In this document: positions 2,732 to 32,000 of the stretch, piece after piece
Layout of the letters: the number at the start of each line of letters is the position of its first letter
Position numbering within the stretch: position 1 is the stretch's first letter
NCBI GenBank assembly: GCA_964291655.2
Contig: OZ219801.1
Coordinates: 755,377-787,376, forward strand
DNA from: Chloroflexota bacterium
Lineage (GTDB): Bacteria > Chloroflexota > UBA11872 > VXOZ01
Length of the DNA: 32,000 nucleotides
Direction of reading: 5' to 3'
The notes under the pieces: model-generated
Told to the model about the DNA's origin: nothing
Seen by the model: only the letters and a program-made list of their open reading frames with translations
The model's database searches: none
Program-made: the position numbers and the translations under genes

Positions 2732-4180
2732 ATGAATGTCGTTGTCATCTGCCTTGATACTATGCGCACCGACATGGTGCACACACTTGGCGCTGATTTC
2801 ATACGTACGCCGGTTCTCGACAACTTGGCGGCAGAGAGCGTGGTATTCACTGAAGCGTACGGCTGTGCCTATCCTACCATTCCCGCGCGCCGGGCACTCT
2901 TTACCGGCATGAACAGTTTTCCTTGGCAATTCGGCTTTGACACGCTAGGCTCTAGCCCTTCGCCGCGGGGCTGGCACAAGATTCCACCGGAACACACACC
3001 GGTCGCTGAGCGCCTCGTTGAGGCAGGCGTCAACACCGGCTTCATCGCCGATACATATCACATGTTCAAGGCAACCATGAACTTTACGCGGGGCTTTTGC
3101 TCCTGGGACTTCGTGCGGGGCCAAGAGTTCGACCACTGGAAGACCTTGCCGCCTGGCGCGGTCGACCCAACCAAGTATACTGACGCAGAGCCGGATTCGC
3201 CCCGCATGACCGGCATGCTGCAATACTTGTGGAACCAAGGCGAGCGCCCGTGCGATGATGACTTTCAGGCAGCGCGCGTCTTCTTGAGCGCCATGGATTG
3301 GGTAGAAAACAACGCACCATACGGACCGTTCTATCTCTACATCGACTCCTTCGATCCTCACGAACCGTGGGACCCGCCGCTCCATTATGCGGATGCGTAT
3401 TACAAAGACGACTCGGTAAAAGACTACATCTGGCCGGTGGGCACCGAGGTGGATGGCGAGGCGGCCATCGAACGCACAAAAGCCCTCTACTACGGTGAAG
3501 TGACGTTCGTTGATACGTGGATCGGACACTTCTTGAACAAGCTGGAGGCGCTCCATCTTCTGGAAGATACCGTAATCATCTTCACTTCCGACCACGGCAC
3601 CGAGCTCCTCGACCGCAACCGCTTTGGCAAGTCCGAAGACCACCTCCAGTGGTTCAATACGCGCATCAACATGTTCATCCGCCATCCCGACAAGCAACAC
3701 GCGGGCAAACGCCTCGATGCGTTCGTGCAGCACCAGGACGTGCCGCCCACCGTGCTCGATCTCTTAGGCGTCACACACCAAGGTCTCGACGGTATTTCCA
3801 TGTGGGCTCTCGTTACCGGTGAACGCGCAAAGAACCGCGACTTCATTGTTGCCGGCTGGGGACAGCACGCCACAGTGCGGGATCACGATCACAACTATGT
3901 GATCGACTTTGAACAAGGGCCGCGCAAGACCGACAGCGGCGGCTTCACGGTCACGCAGGAGACCGCTGCCCAGCACGTCCAAGAAGAGCTCTACAGCTTG
4001 AAAGACGATCCGCTTGAAACGACGAACGTGCTCGAAAGTGAGCCCGACGCGGCAGAAAAGCAACGGGCTCGCCTAGAAGGCTTTCTGGGGCAGGAATTGC
4101 CGGCGCATCTGGATGATCGGGTTGATACCTATGAATACCCGCGCCGTGTACACGCCAAGACTAACCCGTATGTTAAGTAG
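2732..4180 (+). CDS. sulfatase-family (alkaline-phosphatase superfamily) hydrolase/transferase
   Basis: 482 aa. It has an N-terminal VVICLDTMRTD metal-site block, GCAYPTIPARRALFTG (a C/T-x-P-x-R-like nucleophile region) and IIFTSDHG. Confidence 0.8.
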   Translation: MNVVVICLDTMRTDMVHTLGADFIRTPVLDNLAAESVVFTEAYGCAYPTIPARRALFTGMNSFPWQFGFDTLGSSPSPRGWHKIPPEHTPVAERLVEAGVNTGFIADTYHMFKATMNFTRGFCSWDFVRGQEFDHWKTLPPGAVDPTKYTDAEPDSPRMTGMLQYLWNQGERPCDDDFQAARVFLSAMDWVENNAPYGPFYLYIDSFDPHEPWDPPLHYADAYYKDDSVKDYIWPVGTEVDGEAAIERTKALYYGEVTFVDTWIGHFLNKLEALHLLEDTVIIFTSDHGTELLDRNRFGKSEDHLQWFNTRINMFIRHPDKQHAGKRLDAFVQHQDVPPTVLDLLGVTHQGLDGISMWALVTGERAKNRDFIVAGWGQHATVRDHDHNYVIDFEQGPRKTDSGGFTVTQETAAQHVQEELYSLKDDPLETTNVLESEPDAAEKQRARLEGFLGQELPAHLDDRVDTYEYPRRVHAKTNPYVK

Positions 4181-5546: not shown

Positions 5547-5617
5547 CTGTGCGCTCACTCATCCATCTCTCAAGACTTGGAGGGACAGCGGCATGCATTA
5601 CAGTTTAGTGCGACAAC

Positions 5618-5766
5618 ATTGGGGCTTGTCCCCCGACTCATTGGCCAAGTCAACAAGCAGAACTCGCACCGGTCCTCCCCTAGAAGTGAATACTGTAGCG
5701 CGGGGGCTTGTCCCCCGCCTCTTTGGCTCAGTCAACAAGCGGAACTCGCAGCGGTCCTCCCCCAGA
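5618..5766. repeat. two tandem ~80-bp units, each starting with a GC-hairpin REP-like core (family B)
   Basis: ttggggcttgtcccccgactcattggccaagtcaacaagcagaactcgcaccggtcctcccc (from 5618) aligns with gcgggggcttgtcccccgcctctttggctcagtcaacaagcggaactcgcagcggtcctcccc (from 5700). Confidence 0.85.
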
Positions 5767-22740: not shown

Positions 22741-23292
22741 CTAGAATATCTCATCCGGGTCGAGGGTAAAACCGTGCAGCGTGGGCGAAGTCAGATTTTG
22801 CCCGGGGCCGTAGATGCCCGTGAGGGCAAAGCCGCGTTCTGATAGCAGCAGCACCGTTACGGTCTTGGCATCGGGGTCCACCAGCCAGTACTCTTTTACG
22901 CCGTGTGCAGCGTAGAGATCTCGTTTGAACGTCCCGTCGCGCGCGGCGGTGGCGGGAGAGAGGATTTCGACCACTACGTCTGGCGCGCCGCGGACGTTGT
23001 CACCGTTGCGGAGCATGTGCTCTCGTTCCCTGGCAACAAAGAGCAAGTCAGGCTGGACGACGTCTGTGTTCGACAGCACTACGTCGCACGGCGCGGCAAA
23101 GACCTGTCCCAGACCTCTCTCCTGCACGAATACGTGGAAGAGCGCTCCGAGTTGCATAGCAACCCTTTGGTGGGATAGGCGTGGCGCCGGCGCCATCACT
23201 AACTCTCCGTCCAACAGTTCGTAACGCTCATCGTCTGGGGTATTTCGGTAGTCGTCGTATGTCAATTTGATGGCGGGCGTAGAACTAGCCAT
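22741..23292 (-). CDS. Uma2-family (DUF820) PD-(D/E)xK endonuclease
   Basis: 183 aa. It shows YELLDGELVMAPAPRLSHQRV, QPDLLFV, VVEILSP and GVKEYWLVDP, which are the typical Uma2 blocks. Confidence 0.85.
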   Translation of the reverse strand: MASSTPAIKLTYDDYRNTPDDERYELLDGELVMAPAPRLSHQRVAMQLGALFHVFVQERGLGQVFAAPCDVVLSNTDVVQPDLLFVAREREHMLRNGDNVRGAPDVVVEILSPATAARDGTFKRDLYAAHGVKEYWLVDPDAKTVTVLLLSERGFALTGIYGPGQNLTSPTLHGFTLDPDEIF

Positions 23293-25603: not shown

Positions 25604-27511
25604 TTATTCCGAACTGGTTCCCGCCGCAGCGGCAGCGGCTTGCTCAGCGGGAGAGGCGTCCGCAGTCGCCGGACTCACCGCAACGCCATCTGAATCCTCC
25701 GCTGGATCTCCATCGACCGAGGGCGTAGGTGATTCTGCGGGCTTCTGTGGCCCTCTGACCCGATCGACCAGACGGCGCAGTTGTTGGTCGTCCGGAGCCA
25801 CTGCAACACCCGCTTCCCCTACCGCCAAGGCTTCAGCCTCATTGTCAGTCTCTAAGTGCGTCCATACGAGCATTCGGTAGAGAAACGCCTGCGCATGCGA
25901 ATCGTCTGCCCGCTTTGCAATTTCCAGCCCCTGCGAAAACTGTTCAAGAGCGTCCACGAACTTGCCCCGCTCGTAGCAAATGCGGCCGAGCACGGCGACA
26001 GGCGCGTAGTTATCGGGGTTATCCAGCACAAGCTGTTCCGCCATCATGGCTGCGCGCGTGTGCTCGCCTGCCACGGCGAGTTGCTGAGCAAAGGCGAGCG
26101 CAGCGTCCAGGTTGTCCGGCTCTTGTTGGGTCGCCTGCTCCAAAGCGGCCAAGGACTCTTGGTGCTCGCCCTTAAGCATGTGTTGCAGCGCAGTTGCCAT
26201 TCCCGTGGTTGCCGATGAAGTTGCCACCGCAGGTTTTGCAGGTTCCTTTTCCTTTTCCTGAGCCTCCACATTTGCGGGCGGCTCAGGCTGGGGTCGTTTC
26301 CGCCCACCGCTTTCACGAACTGGTGTGTCTGACGCACCCCGCGAAGTTGCTTTTGCCGTGCCCGTGTCAGAGCGTGGCTGGCGGGCCGGCGGCGACGCCT
26401 GTCGCGGTCGCGTCCCCCGTCCCCGCTGGCGTGCGGCGTCGTCGCCGCGAGTAGATTGGCCGTTGCTGCTCTTGGCGGCGCGCTCCAGCTCTTGCTTCCG
26501 AGATTGAACATCCTTATAGCGGCTGTCCAAATTGCCGCAGCGGGTATAGGCTTCGAGTGCCTTATCCGGTGCGCCCAGTTTTTCGTACACTTGGCCGAGG
26601 TCGTAGTAGATCTCCGCATCGTCATCCTGCTGACGCACCACGTCTTCGAGTTCATTCGCAGCATCAGAATTCCGCCCCAAGGCGGAAAGGGTAAGCGCCA
26701 GCCGATGCCGGTAGCGCGCCTGACGCGGCATCAATCGCACTGCCTGCGAGAAGTGGTTCAGCGCTCGCGACAATTCGCTGCGATCGAAGGAATTGCGACC
26801 GAGGCTATACAGCCGGGCAGCCAGCATATTGCGATCAACGTGCGTATCCAGGGTTTCACCGAGCGGCAATTCCGGCTGATCGAATTGCGCCTGTTCCGTG
26901 CGGCGCTTCTCATTCTCGATCACCAGCGAGAGCAGCAGCCCCAGGTCGATGTATCCGTCTGCGACAAGCTTCAAGCCGGGATCGCTACCCACGCCAAAGT
27001 TGCCTACCATTACTTGGACGCCGCGGTCACGGAGCCGGGAAAACACCGGAATGAAGTCCCCGTCTCCGGTCAGCGCGAACGCCTTGTCATAGAAACCTAC
27101 AAAGTCGAGCATGTCCAGCGACATCTCGATGTCCAGATTGCCTTTGTAGCCCCCTCCCGGCAGCTCTTTAGACCGCTTATGGACCACACGAAAGCCGTGG
27201 GTTACCAGATAGTCAAGCTGCTGGCGAAAGCCCTCTACCCGCAAGTCCGTGCCCGTATAGTAATAAGCTCCCAGGAGCGTATCGTCTCCTCGGAGCTGGT
27301 CTCGAATTAGGTGCCACGGCACGCGCATGATGCCGATGTCTCGGGCTTGGCGTTCGATGTTGGCCGCATCGATGAAAATCATCAGGCGATGCGGCTTTGT
27401 AGACTGAAGGGGTGTACCGATTGCGGATTTTAGCGATTCTAGCGGGTGCCCGCAGGCAATACAGATGAGGCTACTGCCTCTGTTCAAACTCCCACACGTA
27501 GGACAATTCAT
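25604..27511 (-). CDS. zinc-ribbon / NYN (LabA-like) nuclease-domain / TPR-repeat protein
   Basis: 635 aa. N-terminal CPTCG...CIACG zinc ribbon, then NYN blocks MIFIDAANIERQ and FALTGDGDFIPVFSRLRDRGVQV. Two TPR regions are separated by a low-complexity basic linker, and the tail is acidic. Confidence 0.85.
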   Translation of the reverse strand: MNCPTCGSLNRGSSLICIACGHPLESLKSAIGTPLQSTKPHRLMIFIDAANIERQARDIGIMRVPWHLIRDQLRGDDTLLGAYYYTGTDLRVEGFRQQLDYLVTHGFRVVHKRSKELPGGGYKGNLDIEMSLDMLDFVGFYDKAFALTGDGDFIPVFSRLRDRGVQVMVGNFGVGSDPGLKLVADGYIDLGLLLSLVIENEKRRTEQAQFDQPELPLGETLDTHVDRNMLAARLYSLGRNSFDRSELSRALNHFSQAVRLMPRQARYRHRLALTLSALGRNSDAANELEDVVRQQDDDAEIYYDLGQVYEKLGAPDKALEAYTRCGNLDSRYKDVQSRKQELERAAKSSNGQSTRGDDAARQRGRGTRPRQASPPARQPRSDTGTAKATSRGASDTPVRESGGRKRPQPEPPANVEAQEKEKEPAKPAVATSSATTGMATALQHMLKGEHQESLAALEQATQQEPDNLDAALAFAQQLAVAGEHTRAAMMAEQLVLDNPDNYAPVAVLGRICYERGKFVDALEQFSQGLEIAKRADDSHAQAFLYRMLVWTHLETDNEAEALAVGEAGVAVAPDDQQLRRLVDRVRGPQKPAESPTPSVDGDPAEDSDGVAVSPATADASPAEQAAAAAAGTSSE

Positions 27512-28141
27512 TACAATACGTCGTGCCTCACTCTTCCAAATTCCCTTGAATAATAGGGGTCACGTGTCCGGCGTGCCCTTAGCAGGTATGATACCACAGT
27601 TCAATCCATGTAGTGCCGCGGCGGGCGCAGCGGCTATGCCCTTCGATCAATGCAACGGTAAACACGTCGTACTATTCGGTGGAACGATTGACTTGCCTAA
27701 AACCCCGATTGCTTTCCGTTGACCGACAGGACTCGAGGCGGTAGCATTGAGGCGCGCTTTACCATCTGGCGATCGGTAGGGACGCTAAGGCCTATGAAAA
27801 CGCGTCAATTGGCTTGCTAGCCACATTGAATTCTCGAGTGAGATTAGGCTAGTCCCGATTCAAGGCGCCTGGCCGACTGTACGAGCGAGTTCAAGTCTCT
27901 CTTAATTCCGCTTACTTGAAGTTGGTGGTTGCCATGTCGAATAGTCCGTCTAAGGCGTTCTCTTCTCATTTGGAAACACATCTATTACACATCAAGTCAG
28001 GAATCTCCAGACGATGCTTGCGCAATAACTGTTGACTTCAAGGCCTTCAAAGAGGATCCGGAGGAACTCCGGCTTGGGCCAACGCTTCTAACTTGAGGAA
28101 ACACAAATCTGAGAATCATAAACTGAAGACCAGAGGAAATC

Positions 28142-29311
28142 TTGGACACTAGAAACCAGAGCTGGACTAGTCTGCTGAAACAAGAAGGGCCCGACTTCCT
28201 AGCATGGTTAAGGACCCAGCGAACCCTATCAAGAAAGTTCGACGTATTGTCGAAAGCTCTATCGACACTCTTGCAGAACTGTATTCGCACACCAGAGCAA
28301 GCCGCGGATGTTTGGAAGGCCGTGCCAGCGGTGATTGAACGCTGTAACGAAAGGGAAACCTATGAAATGCCCGGAGCCGCGTGCGCTTACGCGTGGCTTC
28401 ACTTGCTTGACCGATACGTCCGAACGTGGTTTGCCTTGGAACTGCTCGTAGAGAAACATTGTCTTCCGATGGGGAAGAAAGGAGTACGTGCATTGGATGT
28501 AGGCACCGGGCCTGGTCCATCCGCATTCGCTATTCACGACTTCTATGCCTCAATGGTCGAGTTTTCTCAGACGCTTTCTCAGACGCGGGATGATTCCAAG
28601 TGGCGACAACCATCGCATGTAACCTGTGTCGAATTTGATGGGAGTACCAACCACTTTAGACATCTCCTCGCTGAGGTGATTTTCGAGCAGGCCCAACGCG
28701 AATCCGAAGGGGTCCTTGCGATGTGTGGCAACTTGGCGGACTTCGGAGAGGTAGAGCCTACGCGAGAGCGTATGGAGCATTTTCAGGCTCTAAGTAACGC
28801 CGAGGAAACGTATTTTGATGAAGTAAGAGGCGAATGGACTTCGGACCTGTTGTACTTGCCGTACGAAGCCAACTACATCGCTCAATCTCAGCACCGATAC
28901 CGCCTAATCACGTTCAGCAACTTCCTTACTACTGTGAAGACCGCGAAGTGCTTTAAACCAAACTTAGTTGATATATTTTGCGATGCAGCGCCAGGAACCG
29001 TGTTGCTAGTACTCGGAGGGACAGGAGGCCCCTATCCCGAGGTATACCAATACACAGACCAGTTAGCCGAGCCAGCGGGTTTTGAACTGGGAATTCATGA
29101 CGAAACTGTATCTTGTGCAGGTAGCGAGTTTGCATGCCGAGTTTATGAAGAGGGACGTCAGTTCTACGAGTTCCTCCAAGGACTTTCGCCAAACAAGGAT
29201 GCCGCGACAAAGTGTGTTCGTGACGAATTCGAAGGGCGAAAGGCAGTTCATTTCTCTTGCAGTGGGGTACGAGTATATCGGAAACATTGGTACGCAAAGG
29301 GTAAGAATTGA
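28142..29311 (+). CDS. Rsm22-like class I SAM-dependent methyltransferase-fold protein
   Basis: 389 aa with a TTG start preceded by GAGGAAA. Motif I is RALDVGTGPGPSAFAI, preceded by AYAWLHLLDRY. Later RLITFSNFLTT and GTVLLVLGGTGGPYPE follow the order of blocks in the Rsm22 family. The gene lies in a low-GC segment. Confidence 0.6.
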   Translation: MDTRNQSWTSLLKQEGPDFLAWLRTQRTLSRKFDVLSKALSTLLQNCIRTPEQAADVWKAVPAVIERCNERETYEMPGAACAYAWLHLLDRYVRTWFALELLVEKHCLPMGKKGVRALDVGTGPGPSAFAIHDFYASMVEFSQTLSQTRDDSKWRQPSHVTCVEFDGSTNHFRHLLAEVIFEQAQRESEGVLAMCGNLADFGEVEPTRERMEHFQALSNAEETYFDEVRGEWTSDLLYLPYEANYIAQSQHRYRLITFSNFLTTVKTAKCFKPNLVDIFCDAAPGTVLLVLGGTGGPYPEVYQYTDQLAEPAGFELGIHDETVSCAGSEFACRVYEEGRQFYEFLQGLSPNKDAATKCVRDEFEGRKAVHFSCSGVRVYRKHWYAKGKN

Positions 29312-29523
29312 GCAAATCGCGTCAACAGGACTTGAGGGCGACCATTCTTTCGCGACCTCTCAAGGCTTCCTGCACAACAGCCCAGCACACTTGGTGACTT
29401 TAGTCCAAACTTACATGCTAGTCATTTAGTGTAGCAATACCATCCACTAGAGAGTTCGAATTCCCGTCCCACTAGGCCCCTGGAGTCTCGCAACCTACGA
29501 GATTTCCAACTAAAGGAGTTTCG

Positions 29524-30393
29524 ATGATGTCCGCGCAGAAACTCTACAAAGTTGGCGTCACCGGCTATCCCCTTTCACATACGCTCTCCCCTGCCTTTCA
29601 ACAGCCGGCGTTCGACCACTACGGTATACCGGCTACGTACCGCACGTACCCTGTGACAGCGGCAGAATTGCCGTCATTGACCGCCGCGATGCGCAGCGCG
29701 GAGTGGCTGGGGCTCAACGTGACCATTCCGCATAAAGAAGCCGTGGCTGCCCTGGTTGACCGTTGCACTCCTACTGCTGAAAACATAGGCGCCGTCAATA
29801 CGCTCTTCAAAGACAGCGGGAGCCTCATCGGCGACAACACCGATGCTTACGGCTTCTTGACTGCGTTGCGGACGGACGGTGCTACCGACCCCGCAGGCGC
29901 AAAGGTGGTCGTGTTGGGCGCAGGCGGAGCGGGACGCGCCGTGCTCGTGGCGCTTGCGCAGGGCGGCGCTGCGCAAATCACACTTGCCAACCGGCACCGC
30001 GAGCGTGCCGAAGGTCTCTTGAGCGCCCTTGAAGAATCGCTGAGCGCCCAGGACTGCAATGTGGTGGACTGGGCCAGCACGGCGCTGCACCAAGCTGCGG
30101 CAGCGGCAGACATCATCGTAAACTCCACCGCCGTGGGCATGTCCAAGGGGCCCGCGCCGGAGCTGTCACCTCTGCCCTCGCACGTGTTCCAAGGAAACCA
30201 GTTCGTATTCGACCTCGTCTACACTCCCAGCCACACGCCCCTGCTACGCCATGCCCAAGAGGGAGGGGCACGCACCCTGGACGGCCTCCCAATGCTCGTC
30301 TATCAAGGCGCCGCGGCCTTCGAACGCTGGACAGCAAAGCCCGCGCCCCTTAAACTGATGAAGGCCAAGGCACTGGCCGCGCTTAGTGCGTGA
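29524..30393 (+). CDS. aroE: shikimate 5-dehydrogenase
   Basis: 289 aa. It has GYPLSHTLSPAFQQPAF, LNVTIPHK, NTDAYGF and GAGGAGRAV. The RBS AAAGGAG lies upstream of the ATG. Confidence 0.92.
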   Translation: MMSAQKLYKVGVTGYPLSHTLSPAFQQPAFDHYGIPATYRTYPVTAAELPSLTAAMRSAEWLGLNVTIPHKEAVAALVDRCTPTAENIGAVNTLFKDSGSLIGDNTDAYGFLTALRTDGATDPAGAKVVVLGAGGAGRAVLVALAQGGAAQITLANRHRERAEGLLSALEESLSAQDCNVVDWASTALHQAAAAADIIVNSTAVGMSKGPAPELSPLPSHVFQGNQFVFDLVYTPSHTPLLRHAQEGGARTLDGLPMLVYQGAAAFERWTAKPAPLKLMKAKALAALSA

Positions 30394-30478
30394 TGCTCGG
30401 TATTTGACTGCCCATGAGCACTGGAAGAAAGAACTGAGTTTGCCTGCTTTGGGTAACTAAAACAGATAAGTCAATCTC

Positions 30479-31111
30479 ATGCCAATTGACCATGGATCAG
30501 TGGACCCGGTTGCAAAGCTCGTCGACTCAATTGACGGTTCATTTGGTACGATACTTGCTGACCCTCCCTGGAGATTCAATAACCGCACAGGCAGAGTAGC
30601 TCCAGAATATCGCCGCCTCCCTCGCTATTCGTCAATGTCCATCCATGAGATTTTGACTCTTCCCGTACGTGAGTTTGCACTTGAAAACTGCCATCTATAT
30701 CTGTGGGTTCCAAATGCTCTAATACAACAGGGCTTGTCTGTCATGGAACAATGGGGTTTCCAATACAAAACAAACATCGTCTGGTATAAGACTCGTAAAG
30801 ATGGCGGGCCAGACGGACGCGGAGTTGGCTTCTATTTTAGAAATGTCACTGAATTGGTTCTCTTTGGAGTTCGTGGGAACATACGTACACTGGAGCCAGG
30901 CAGGAGACAGGTCAACATCGTAATGAGTCAAAAACGTGAACACTCCCGAAAGCCAGACGAACTATACGACATAATTGAGCAGTGCAGTCCCGGCCCTTAC
31001 CTAGAATTGTTCGCACGACACGCTCGGCCAGGATGGGTTCAATGGGGAAACGAGGTTAGCCACAGGTTAGCGACACTAGACAAGAGTGCCAACTCATCGA
31101 ATAGCACCTAA
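30479..31111 (+). CDS. MT-A70-family N6-adenine methyltransferase
   Basis: 210 aa. It has the ILADPPWRF catalytic DPPW motif, HLYLWV, SRKPDELYDIIE and ELFARHARPGWVQWGNE. The gene is low in GC. Confidence 0.9.
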   Translation: MPIDHGSVDPVAKLVDSIDGSFGTILADPPWRFNNRTGRVAPEYRRLPRYSSMSIHEILTLPVREFALENCHLYLWVPNALIQQGLSVMEQWGFQYKTNIVWYKTRKDGGPDGRGVGFYFRNVTELVLFGVRGNIRTLEPGRRQVNIVMSQKREHSRKPDELYDIIEQCSPGPYLELFARHARPGWVQWGNEVSHRLATLDKSANSSNST

Positions 31112-31153
31112 GCTGTCAATTATGCTGATGCGAATACCTTAGACTTTCGTCGT

Positions 31154-32000
31154 ATGCGCTCCCGGCAGGTCATCATGGAAAGAGTTAACAAGCGAGGAGA
31201 GGTCACTGGTTTCGTCTCCGGAACCGACCTTGAACGAGAGCGGAGGCAACGCCGCAAGGCTGCCCACGAGAAGACCGTACCATTGGGTCAAGTTTCGAAT
31301 TATGCTGATGATGGTTGGGAGATTGTCCGGCGCAACAAGAGAACCGCTCGAGTCCAAAAGGCAAAGCCCGAAGACCAAAGACTTGAAGACGATGTTTGGA
31401 CTTTGCTTGCAGACATGGGATTTTGCGAGATCAGCCAAGGACGTCATTTCAAAATTCCTGTTAGCGGTTCGACTTTAGGAGTTCCTCCCAAGCAAATCGA
31501 TGTGCTTGCAGTTGATAGTGACACTGCAATGGTGGTGGAGTGTAAGGCCTCGGATACAATTAGGTCGCGCTCTCTCCAAAAGGACCTAAATGAAACTCGA
31601 GGGTTGCAGGATGGGATTCGTTCTACCATTCACCGCCATTTCGAAGCACATCTAAGAGTGTGTTTTGTTTACGTTACAAGGAACATTCGTTGGAGTAGCC
31701 AAGATTTAGGACGAGCCAAAGACCATCAAATTGCCGTGATTCGAGATAGGCAAATCGACTACTACCGAAGGCTGACAGACATTATTCAGACAGCTGCAAG
31801 GCACCAGTTTCAGGCAGACCTTCTTGAGGGATCTTCCGTTCGAGGTTTGAGCGCTACAGTACCAGCCCTTCGTGGCAAGTTTGGAAAGAATGTCTTCTAT
31901 CAGTTTGCGATTGAGCCCGATAAATTGCTGAAACTTGCTTATGTTAGCCACCGATCTAAGGTTGACAGCAAGGTTATAGGTACGTACCAACGGCTTCTAA
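31154..32000 (+). CDS. partial ORF (runs off the window): N-terminal PD-(D/E)xK nuclease-like domain fused to the beginning of a DndB/DGQHR-like (ParB-fold) domain
   Basis: This ORF is not in the supplied track. I read 282 consecutive sense codons from the ATG at 31154 (second ATG at 31175) to the window end with no stop. It contains EDDVW...IDVLAVDSDTAMVVECK (E...D...ExK). Later, VPALRGKFGKNVFYQFAIEPDKLLKLAYVSHR...GTYQRLL resembles the N-terminal part of DndB/DGQHR proteins. It starts 42 nt after the MT-A70 stop, in the same frame. Confidence 0.7.
   Translation, partial: MRSRQVIMERVNKRGEVTGFVSGTDLERERRQRRKAAHEKTVPLGQVSNYADDGWEIVRRNKRTARVQKAKPEDQRLEDDVWTLLADMGFCEISQGRHFKIPVSGSTLGVPPKQIDVLAVDSDTAMVVECKASDTIRSRSLQKDLNETRGLQDGIRSTIHRHFEAHLRVCFVYVTRNIRWSSQDLGRAKDHQIAVIRDRQIDYYRRLTDIIQTAARHQFQADLLEGSSVRGLSATVPALRGKFGKNVFYQFAIEPDKLLKLAYVSHRSKVDSKVIGTYQRLL

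Follow-up and report, generated by a model that had tools for sequence, protein, structure and literature searches.

The 32,000-nucleotide stretch of contig OZ219801.1 (Chloroflexota bacterium) analysed here, referred to below as the window, ends in a pair of genes that we interpret as a horizontally acquired, two-gene defence module resembling a restriction-modification (R-M) system. One gene encodes an MT-A70 family methyltransferase; the other, which runs off the end of the window at position 32000, encodes a large protein that would be the restriction subunit, a fusion of a DNase, an NTP switch and an RNase in one chain. We consider this explanation probable, and it is weighed below against three others.

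Base composition separates the pair from the DNA that precedes it. The segment 30394-32000 has a GC content of 0.482, compared with 0.591±0.027 (minimum 0.541) for 1.6-kb windows over positions 1-27500, a deficit of about 4 standard deviations. The aroE gene immediately upstream (29524-30393) has a GC content of 0.63 and a third-position GC content (GC3) of 0.71, and GC3 is 0.46 in the MT-A70 gene and 0.45 in the large gene. The two-gene module is foreign in composition. The drop directly after aroE that had been predicted from the sequence is real (0.48 vs 0.59±0.03 elsewhere); the accompanying estimate of 38-47% GC per 60-nucleotide line caught the fall, with values somewhat below the 300-nucleotide averages of 0.45-0.52. 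A scan of the spacer between aroE and the methylase gene for promoters and terminators gave no significant signal beyond shuffled-sequence controls, and no tRNA or integration-site signals were found near the island.

Features of the module within the window (residue numbers of the large protein are those of P0025)
Feature	Position	Strand	Basis
Spacer between aroE stop codon and methylase start	30394..30478	.	GC profile; composition falls here
MT-A70 family N6-adenine methyltransferase gene, 210 aa, single domain	30479..31111	+	PF05063 profile
DPPW catalytic motif, methylase residues 28-31	30560..30571	+	Sequence and translation
5' part (residues 1-275 of 762) of PD-(D/E)xK / DGQHR / HEPN effector gene	31175..32000	+	282 open codons; P0025 identity
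PD-(D/E)xK nuclease domain, residues ~66-215	31370..31819	+	Residue conservation, Foldseek
Candidate catalytic E71/D72	31385-31390	+	Conservation
Candidate catalytic D109	31499-31501	+	Conservation
Candidate catalytic E122-C-K124	31538-31546	+	Conservation
First ~48 residues of DGQHR domain	31856..32000	+	TIGR03187, PF14072 on P0025
Conserved YQR 'QR pair'	31985-31993	+	Y271, Q272, R273 invariant

The first gene is the compact DPPW methyltransferase that the original prediction described. Its reading frame is intact, the catalytic motif is present, and the product matches PF05063 over the whole profile (positions 1-172 of 172), with 113.8 bits (cut-off 23.9) and E=1.1e-32. PADLOC assigns it to MTase_II (PDLC03221, 1.3e-90), and its relatives in the PDB are MT-A70/METTL3 catalytic domains, with E-values down to 1.6e-23. 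Together with 11 other MT-A70 genes that precede a copy of the large gene, it forms a single clade. We rejected an exclusive link between MT-A70 and the large protein: most close MT-A70 relatives adjoin BglII-family enzymes or other genes, and among about 67 evaluable close relatives in JGI metagenomes only one has the large gene nearby. In 35 of 80 metagenome loci whose MT-A70 is 62-75% identical to that of the window, the neighbour is a BglII-family restriction endonuclease and there is no DGQHR protein. By this comparison of gene neighbourhoods, close relatives of the window enzyme usually appear to serve BglII-type Type II restriction enzymes, and the window methylase has an R-M ancestry.

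The reading frame of the second gene had been predicted to stay open from 31154 past the end of the window, and it does so for 282 codons. A database protein, P0025, starts at an in-frame ATG at 31175 (the ATG at 31154 is an alternative in-frame start), and its residues 1-275 are 100% identical to the window ORF. We took P0025 (762 residues) as the full-length sequence of the window's large gene; P0025 and P0278, the product of a 389-aa ORF, are recorded on one contig of 830,011 bp. More than 100 intact proteins of about 760 residues exist. In two loci, L001 and L002, an apparent third gene behind the DGQHR gene was rejected as the C-terminus of the same protein; the split reflects frameshifts in 2-5x long-read contigs, and the protein P0012 reads through the junction. 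From N- to C-terminus, P0025 has a PD-(D/E)xK nuclease domain, then a DGQHR (ParB-like) domain, a helical stretch and finally a putative Swt1-like HEPN RNase domain. An AF2 model of the protein has a pLDDT of 86. Residue conservation was read from 106 homologues, 35-78% identical to P0025. Neither the family profile nor a C-terminal profile found a meaningful sequence match in the PDB, and the protein matches no HNH or DUF1524 model (Pfam, PADLOC) and contains no recognisable methyl-sensing domain.

The N-terminal signature of a restriction-endonuclease fold was borne out by profile and fold searches together with residue conservation, which place this region among the PD-(D/E)xK nucleases. 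At the candidate catalytic positions E71/D72, D109 and E122-C-K124, conservation across the 106 homologues is 90% or higher, up to full invariance; these residues map to a helix (residues 66-80) and two strands (106-113 and 117-131) of the model. The best Foldseek match of the domain is Cdn1 (4.6e-4), followed by VC1899 (1.5e-3), AF1548 (1.2e-2) and Card1 (4.5e-2); Can2, McrC and Hjc are also among the matches listed. Pfam matches to Card1_endonuc, Hjc and NERD all fall below cut-off, and the REBASE-derived REase_II models in PADLOC give no match to the large protein.

A DGQHR/ParB-fold domain had been proposed to start at about residue 215, with its namesake motif expected downstream, and P0025 carries the full domain. 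TIGR03187 spans residues 231-527 (159.1 bits against a cut-off of 58.85) and PF14072 scores 57.7 bits against a cut-off of 29.1 on the full-length protein; the window fragment alone reaches only E=0.0097 with TIGR03187, over profile positions 1-43. The DGQHR pentapeptide itself (D339-G-Q-H-R343, within the sequence IDGQHRLYG) lies past the window end. It is invariant in the 106 sequences, as are Y271-Q272-R273 and F375...N379 (FxxxN), so that all three elements of the motif set defined earlier, QR pair, DGQHR and FxxxN (PMC4619093), are present. Structural matches to the ParB-fold proteins PadC and SspE are weak (Foldseek, E>1). The predicted likeness to DndB holds at the level of the generic DGQHR domain and fails for DndB proper: the protein scores 27.4 bits with the DndB equivalog TIGR03233 (cut-off 328) and 90.5 bits with the DpdB equivalog NF041060 (cut-off 300), the best PADLOC match being DpdB (3.7e-27). 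A Pfam scan of the immediate flanking genes in the genome loci (55 upstream and 67 downstream) yielded, among dnd families, only DndB-domain matches. Both scores fall short of the curated thresholds, and dnd and dpd genes are absent from the neighbourhood, so identity with either DndB or DpdB was rejected.

The C-terminal third of the protein, beyond the part visible in the window, is the putative HEPN domain. P0025 contains an Rx4H motif (R727-N-R-L-F-H732) of which R727, N728 and H732 are at least 90% conserved in the 106 sequences. PF18731 matches 8 of 20 family members at E<=0.01 (best 1e-6), P0025 not being among them; the C-terminus of L001 scores 16.8 bits against a cut-off of 27.5, and the PADLOC model PDC-M34B matches P0025 at 4.9e-9. 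A Foldseek search with a model of pLDDT 93 did not confirm the HEPN fold: it returned only non-significant matches (E>0.6), with a few HEPN proteins among them. HEPN domains are fused to R-M endonucleases (REase, ParB) and not to methylases, and have been proposed to act as second-line RNases (PMC3710099, section 10). The domain content of the large protein and the conservation of its catalytic residues are matters of observation.

The family is large. It comprises about 1000 clusters at 50% identity and is present in at least 507 genomes of bacteria and archaea; the best match in the genome scan was 68%. An initial impression of rarity was rejected: a search with the 282-residue fragment found only 13 proteins because of a limit of the word index, and a full-length query and an exhaustive profile search found the large family. 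The family as a whole passes only the generic DGQHR model and not the DndB or DpdB thresholds, and its members are currently labelled 'DGQHR domain-containing protein' or mislabelled 'DndB'. No full-length copy occurs among 50,697 phage records, and we therefore rejected a phage origin. PADLOC has no model for the gene pair, only domain-level matches (DpdB, DndB and the candidate PDC-M34B), and our literature search found no experimental (biochemical or genetic) study of any member. To this extent the pair is uncharacterised, as predicted; against this, the family is large and ParB+HEPN fusions tied to R-M systems were already noted computationally in 2013 (PMC3710099, PMC3632139).

The two genes stay together in other genomes, as the original prediction would have it. 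MT-A70 lies directly upstream of the large gene, in the same direction, in all 11 same-clade loci with an upstream flank (L001, L002, L005 and L006-L013); the two are the only genes conserved across all eight genome loci L006-L013, and their adjacency is kept while the flanks differ. Further partners such as ATPases or helicases had been suggested; none is conserved in the clade, which makes this a two-gene module. Across the wider family a candidate DNA-modification partner adjoins the large gene in 70 of 78 genome loci and is absent from 8. The partner is an MT-A70 enzyme in 8 of the 78, all in the Chloroflexota clade closest to the window, and a Dam/D12 methylase in about 26-28, the D12 gene often overlapping the large-gene stop codon. 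About 36 loci have a set consisting of a radical-SAM protein and a GHKL ATPase, and a short DGQHR protein was detected in roughly one in four of these; an N6_N4 methylase is the partner at a single locus. At L003 the place upstream of a 56%-identical relative is taken by a D12 fragment instead of MT-A70. MT-A70 pairs are represented in Dehalococcoidia MAGs, Dam-type pairs in cultured strains such as Mesorhizobium quangtriensis VNQ89 (L058) and Bradyrhizobium sp. Ai1a-2 (L066), and the radical-SAM variant on pNL1 of N. aromaticivorans and on plasmids of Agrobacterium sp. S7/73 and Rhizobium sp. AB2/73. The modification partner is therefore interchangeable while the two-gene adjacency is conserved, and such partner swapping is typical of R-M systems. 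Relatives adjoin CBASS, Type I R-M and Tn7-like genes, transposases and integrases, and some reside on plasmids. Several are disrupted by IS elements or frameshifts; most of the frameshifts, found in 2-6x long-read contigs, look like sequencing errors.

Several described systems share part of this arrangement. BglII-family endonucleases with MT-A70 methylases form Type II R-M systems in which, as here, a small stand-alone DPPW methylase adjoins a co-directional gene for a nuclease of the PD-(D/E)xK fold, and the window methylase is 62-75% identical to the methylases of such loci. The partner here has 762 residues, whereas the BglII-family neighbours have roughly 200-270; it has DGQHR and HEPN domains in addition, shows no sequence relationship to BglII and gives no REase_II match. 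The closest precedent for the C-terminal part is the group of ParB+HEPN Swt1-like fusions (e.g. Saro_3948; PMC3710099, Table 1), which combine a ParB-superfamily domain with a Swt1/Abi2-type HEPN domain whose Rx4-6H motif is mostly intact, and which were proposed to work with R-M systems. Plasmid pNL1 of Novosphingobium aromaticivorans DSM 12444, the Saro strain, encodes a full-length family member (34% identity, 98% coverage); the 2013 table is silent on an N-terminal PD-(D/E)xK domain, on pairing with MT-A70 or Dam, and on the radical-SAM variant.

DndB and DpdB share with the large protein a DGQHR domain with QR, DGQHR and FxxxN motifs and a helical extension, as well as an association with DNA-modification genes, but they have about 350 residues and no REase domain, and dndCDE and dpdA are not found near the large gene. 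GmrSD, SspE and BrxU likewise pair, in one chain, an endonuclease with a ParB/Srx-like domain of NTPase type, whose DGQQR motif is related to DGQHR, and are used in defence (PMC4619093, PMC12839542). Their nuclease is an HNH domain (DUF1524), in contrast to the N-terminal PD-(D/E)xK domain of the large protein; they have no HEPN domain and are not encoded with a protecting methylase, and the structural match to SspE is not significant. PrrC-EcoprrI and other HEPN-linked R-M systems also combine a HEPN RNase with restriction, presumably to provide a second line of defence (PMC3710099, section 10). PrrC, however, is a protein of its own, an ABC-ATPase-HEPN encoded next to a Type I system; in the module, the putative HEPN domain and the putative restriction nuclease are directly fused.

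These parallels suggest how the module might work. The MT-A70 enzyme probably marks adenine N6 at a short motif in host DNA, and its 762-residue partner would act as the restriction subunit, the PD-(D/E)xK domain cutting unmarked DNA. The DGQHR domain would bind DNA and, working as a nucleotide-dependent clamp or switch, license the nuclease (compare DUF262/GmrS of GmrSD, SspE and BrxU, and the ATPase DpdB). The Swt1-like HEPN domain would be a second, RNA-cutting effector, released once DNA restriction is overwhelmed or inhibited, as an abortive-infection backstop like PrrC with EcoprrI. We infer cleavage of unmethylated DNA by the large protein, NTP binding or hydrolysis by the DGQHR domain, RNase activity of the HEPN domain and protection against phage by the pair. 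A further idea, which we put forward tentatively and regard as rather unlikely, is that the family is a separate class of restriction system in which one polypeptide joins a DNase and an RNase through a nucleotide-gated DGQHR switch and reads interchangeable 'self' marks (m6A made by MT-A70 or Dam, or a novel DNA mark made by the radical-SAM, GHKL-ATPase and short-DGQHR set); in that case the radical-SAM variant would also indicate a new enzymatic DNA modification.

The DGQHR protein could instead assist or regulate modification in the manner of DndB and DpdB, loading the methylase on DNA, limiting it there or repressing the operon, with nuclease-like domains that give access to DNA or are vestigial. 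The nearest relative of its DGQHR domain is DpdB (PADLOC 3.7e-27; NCBIfam 90.5 bits), with DndB also related. Base insertion requires the ATPase DpdB, and DndB is reported to act as a regulator (PMC10853773, PMC12839542); the radical-SAM variant has its second, short DGQHR protein inside the modification gene set. We nevertheless judge this improbable. The PD-(D/E)xK and HEPN residues are invariant or nearly so across sequences 35-78% identical to P0025, which argues for active nucleases, and the same large protein stands alongside three unrelated modification chemistries, so that a reader or effector fits better than a dedicated helper of one enzyme. The close MT-A70 relatives that pair with a BglII-family endonuclease (35 of 80 metagenome loci) do so without a DGQHR protein, and the large protein falls below the DndB and DpdB equivalog cut-offs.

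Another account would make the large protein a modification-dependent (Type IV-like) or methylation-independent nuclease and the methylase functionally separate, either orphaned or left over from a BglII-type system. Among known defence nucleases, those whose ParB-like domain is related (DUF262, DGQQR) are indeed Type IV or modification-sensing (PMC4619093, PMC12839542), 8 of the 78 loci have no adjacent modification gene, and the MT-A70 clade is found mostly with other partners. We give it little probability. Type IV enzymes do not usually accompany a methylase that makes the mark they would attack. A modification candidate is adjacent in 70 of the 78 loci, often with overlapping stop and start codons that suggest one operon; the MT-A70 genes linked to the large gene are a single clade, and the pair stays adjacent despite differing flanks. 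The window, moreover, has no BglII-type gene, the upstream gene being aroE. Least probable to us is a module devoted mainly to selfish addiction or abortive infection, with the HEPN RNase as toxin and methylation as the antidote signal, so that cells losing the module die, cleavage of phage DNA being secondary or absent. HEPN domains are typical toxins of toxin-antitoxin and Abi systems (PMC3710099), and a foreign composition, occurrence on plasmids and beside transposases, and relatives broken by IS elements or frameshifts would all fit. This account leaves the strictly conserved PD-(D/E)xK site unexplained, and most of the frameshifts look like sequencing errors. It overlaps the R-M-like explanation rather than excluding it, because classical R-M systems also act as addiction modules.

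If the R-M-like explanation is true, the family of about 1000 clusters would be the restriction arm of a modular defence system missed by current defence finders. It would add a mechanistic type, with DNase, NTP switch and RNase in one chain, so that one protein connects classical restriction with abortive infection. The family would also offer a handle on the role of the ParB-like DGQHR domain outside phosphorothioation and deazaguanine systems, and the radical-SAM sister variant would be a lead to a possibly new DNA modification. Members occur in cultured strains (Sphingomonas, Mesorhizobium, Rhizobium and Marivibrio, and on Novosphingobium plasmid pNL1), so the idea is directly testable.

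Across 30394-32000 the GC content is 0.482, compared with 0.591 ± 0.027 (minimum 0.541) in 1.6-kb windows spanning positions 1-27500. GC3 is 0.46 in the MT-A70 methyltransferase gene, 0.45 in the large gene 3' of it and 0.71 in aroE. A composition drop past aroE, a compact DPPW methyltransferase of the MT-A70 family (see table) and a second reading frame without a stop inside the window had all been read from the sequence in the original prediction, and all three are borne out, the last with 282 codons open from 31154 to the window end.

A second low-GC stretch (27700-29500, GC 0.505) lies 5' of aroE, and the DNA is therefore atypical on both sides of this gene. Within that stretch, a 389-aa ORF (P0278; 28142-29311, +) carries a SAM-methylase-like 'VRALDVGTGPGPSAF' motif recognized by eye. 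None of its 327 homologues (48-76% identity among the matches listed) has a Pfam, NCBIfam or PDB match, and P0278 is a conserved protein without assigned function. A few kb upstream of the pair are a Uma2-family putative restriction endonuclease (22741-23292, −; PF05685, 4e-36) and a 635-aa NYN-domain and TPR protein (25604-27511, −), which may be further nucleic-acid-targeting or defence-type neighbours. For two long ORFs (12868-16059, −, 1063 aa; 7701-9497, −, 598 aa), Pfam gave no match at E≤1e-5.

Features at the window end and partner genes found beside the large gene
Feature	Position or loci	Placement	Basis or remark
aroE, shikimate dehydrogenase domains	29524-30393		Pfam match
MT-A70 methyltransferase ORF, 210 aa	30479-31111		PF05063, E=1.1e-32
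DPPW motif of the MT-A70 methyltransferase	nt 30560-30571
MT-A70 partner	8/78 loci (L006-L013)	directly upstream, co-directional	eight loci most similar to the window
Dam/D12 methylase partner	about 26-28/78 loci	mostly downstream	stop and start codons overlap
N6_N4 methylase partner	1 locus	upstream neighbour	Pfam match; outside the main 78-locus tally
Radical-SAM protein (~540 aa) and GHKL/HSP90-like ATPase (~520 aa)	about 36/78 loci (within L018-L083)	in place of methylase
Partner not found	8/78 loci		some of these contigs short

Profile searches with the 282-aa fragment encoded in the window gave only weak matches, to Card1_endonuc, Hjc and NERD (E=0.015-0.13) and to the first 43 positions of the DGQHR model (E=0.0097); as a query it retrieved 13 relatives with PF14072. 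An apparent third gene on three relatives' metagenome contigs (L001, L002 and L005) was rejected as the C-terminus of the same large protein, split by frameshifts in 2-5x long-read assemblies. Gene callers rendered these homologues as two or three 'genes', with frameshifts at 11361-11470 (L001), 5603-5710 (L002), and 1697-1713 and 2857 (L005). L001 and L002 break at the same spot, after ...DRDxQTT, which may reflect either a homopolymer error common to both or a genuine lesion that they share. A 760-aa composite with the frameshifts repaired retrieved more than 100 intact proteins of ~760 aa. Because the 762-aa database protein P0025 matches residues 8-282 of the window fragment with 100% identity, the large gene probably starts at the ATG at 31175. 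P0025 and P0278, the latter the exact product of its window ORF, are both recorded on an 830,011-bp contig, and P0025 is taken to be the window's own protein.

Three sets of catalytic-type residues are kept in an alignment of 106 full-length members (35-78% identity to P0025). In the PD-(D/E)xK set, E71, D72, Q107, D109, D114, E122 and C123 are invariant and K124 is ≥90% conserved. The DGQHR-domain set (Y271-Q-R273, F294-P295, I338-D-G-Q-H-R-L344 and F375...N379) is invariant and includes the QR pair, DGQHR and FxxxN, the three motifs that define this domain (PMC4619093). The HEPN set, with an Rx4H motif, comprises R727, N728 and H732, each ≥90% conserved.

The AlphaFold2 model of P0025 has a pLDDT of 86.1 and a pTM of 0.70. 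Foldseek comparison of its N-terminal domain with the PDB returned the PD-(D/E)xK nuclease domains of Cdn1, VC1899, AF1548, Card1 and Can2, and also McrC and Hjc (best E 4.6e-4), which with the conserved E71/D72, D109 and E122-C-K124 corroborates the restriction-endonuclease-fold signature proposed for this region. The middle domain scores 159 bits on the curated DGQHR model, above its cut-off of 58.85, and misses the equivalog cut-offs for DpdB (90.5 vs 300 bits), DGQHR_dnd_1 (80.9 vs 450) and DndB (27.4 vs 328); of the 'DGQHR/DndB-like' label, the DGQHR part stands, but DndB likeness does not extend beyond the domain level. The proposed nuclease-DGQHR fusion contains both domains but is incomplete, since a putative C-terminal HEPN domain has to be added. 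This domain is assigned from sequence profiles and the motif, not from fold comparison: PF18731 (Swt1-like HEPN) matches 8 of 20 family members (best 1e-6) and the PADLOC candidate model PDC-M34B matches P0025 (4.9e-9), while residues 596-762 modelled separately (pLDDT 93) gave no significant Foldseek match, HEPN proteins appearing only at E=1.6-4.6. A PDB search found no solved structure for any sequence relative.

Genes beside the large gene at 78 genome loci were called as ORFs and classified by Pfam and seeded BLAST (see table); MT-A70 is directly upstream in L001, L002 and L005 as well. The methylase and the large gene are the only genes common to all of L006-L013, and the unit of this clade is therefore a two-gene module; helicase or ATPase partners, which the original prediction suggested looking for further on, do not belong to it. 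Within these loci the methylases are 67-89% identical and the large proteins only 45-71%. A conserved methylase beside a faster-evolving effector is the usual pattern of R-M pairs. Partner swap and decay inside the close clade are shown by a 56%-identical relative (L003, 9547-13894), which has a Dam/D12 fragment (137 aa) upstream where others have MT-A70 and is cut short at residue 319, where IS elements have inserted. Surroundings of the relatives include CBASS (L002), a Type I R-M system (L004), transposases, Tn7-like genes and integrases. Upstream of the pair in L002, a 204-aa ORF (2809-3423) overlaps the MT-A70 start; it has no Pfam match and no similarity to the BglII-family neighbours described below.

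About a quarter of the radical-SAM loci have a detectable short DGQHR protein (~335 aa), and some a PIN-like protein. The gene set is annotated alike on pNL1 (L086, NC_009426, 8332-12472) and an Agrobacterium plasmid; L087 (8479-12702) has it as well. PADLOC matches neither the radical-SAM protein nor the ATPase, NCBIfam matches are sub-threshold only, and the set seems to be an undescribed module for DNA modification.

MT-A70 genes 62-75% identical to that of the window were found at 80 JGI metagenome loci, with the large gene nearby in only one. In 35 of the 80, the methylase has a BglII-family restriction endonuclease next to it (PF09195, best 2.4e-49), which usually lies upstream and overlaps the start of the methylase gene. 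This is consistent with published work that counts BglII-type R-M methylases among the prokaryotic MT-A70 enzymes (PMC4738411) and confirms an MT-A70/BglII-type Type II R-M family. In a neighbour-joining tree, indicative only as it carries no bootstrap support, the 12 large-gene-linked MT-A70 sequences form one clade beside the BglII-linked radiation. The simplest history is a single recruitment of a Type II R-M methylase in Chloroflexota as partner of the DGQHR effector, the genes travelling together since.

The large-protein family is common, not exotic. Searched exhaustively with a profile, 1.84 billion cluster representatives yielded 1006 proteins at E≤1e-30, rising to 3261 at E≤1e-10 and to 5591 at E≤0.001; among the top 150, most have lengths of ~745-795 aa. 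At least 507 genomes have a relative (one genome scanned per species). Among the best 80 of these loci, the closest relatives are Chloroflexota/Dehalococcoidia (48-68% identity); members with 31-37% identity occur in Proteobacteria, Acidobacteriota, Desulfobacterota, Bacteroidota and other bacterial phyla, and in the archaeal Methanobacteriota, Thermoplasmata and Woesearchaeota. Full-length members are borne on pNL1 (Novosphingobium aromaticivorans) and on plasmids of Agrobacterium sp. S7/73 and Rhizobium sp. AB2/73, and on none of 50,697 phage records.

The general architecture of the large protein has already been noted computationally. Swt1-like HEPN fused to ParB is listed with Saro_3948 as an example (Anantharaman et al., 2013, Table 1; PMC3710099), the full-length member on pNL1 of the same Saro strain being only a candidate counterpart, and HNH, PD-(D/E)xK and HEPN nucleases are frequent fusion partners of ParB-like DGQHR/DUF262 cores, which are linked to modification systems (Makarova et al., 2013; PMC3632139). 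PADLOC gave domain-level matches without recognizing the pair as a system, and none of its REase_II models matches the large protein. Our literature search found neither experiments on the family nor an account of the partner series with MT-A70, Dam or radical SAM. The original interpretation is supported with four corrections: DndB likeness at the domain level only, a putative HEPN domain, no helicase or ATPase partner in this clade, and a common family.

We class the pair as R-M-like, with an effector unusual in having several nuclease domains, and consider it reasonably probable that the methylase marks, the large protein restricts, the DGQHR domain acts as a switch and HEPN as a back-up. 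This reading is drawn from several findings. The two genes are inherited together, and the methylase has its ancestry in R-M systems. Its partner protein keeps two nuclease-type active sites and an intact ParB-like signature for nucleotide binding. Sister clades have other modification modules in place of the methylase. The composition is foreign, and the surroundings are mobile or rich in defence genes. The methylase would put a mark on host DNA, and the PD-(D/E)xK domain would attack DNA without it. By analogy with the related DUF262 domain of GmrSD, SspE and BrxU, and with the ParB-like ATPase DpdB, which powers the insertion of dPreQ0 into DNA (PMC4619093, PMC12839542), the DGQHR domain may be a DNA-binding, NTP-gated switch. 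The HEPN domain could serve as an RNase in reserve, as has been suggested where HEPN domains are joined to R-M endonucleases (PMC3710099, section 10).

The conserved nuclease sites and the partner swapping are accommodated less well if the large protein is an accessory or regulator of modification, or a methylation-independent or Type IV-like nuclease, and likewise if the pair is mainly an addictive or abortive module. For the R-M-like reading, cultured members make the large-protein family usable as a test case, and a new DNA modification may lie behind the sister variant with radical SAM.
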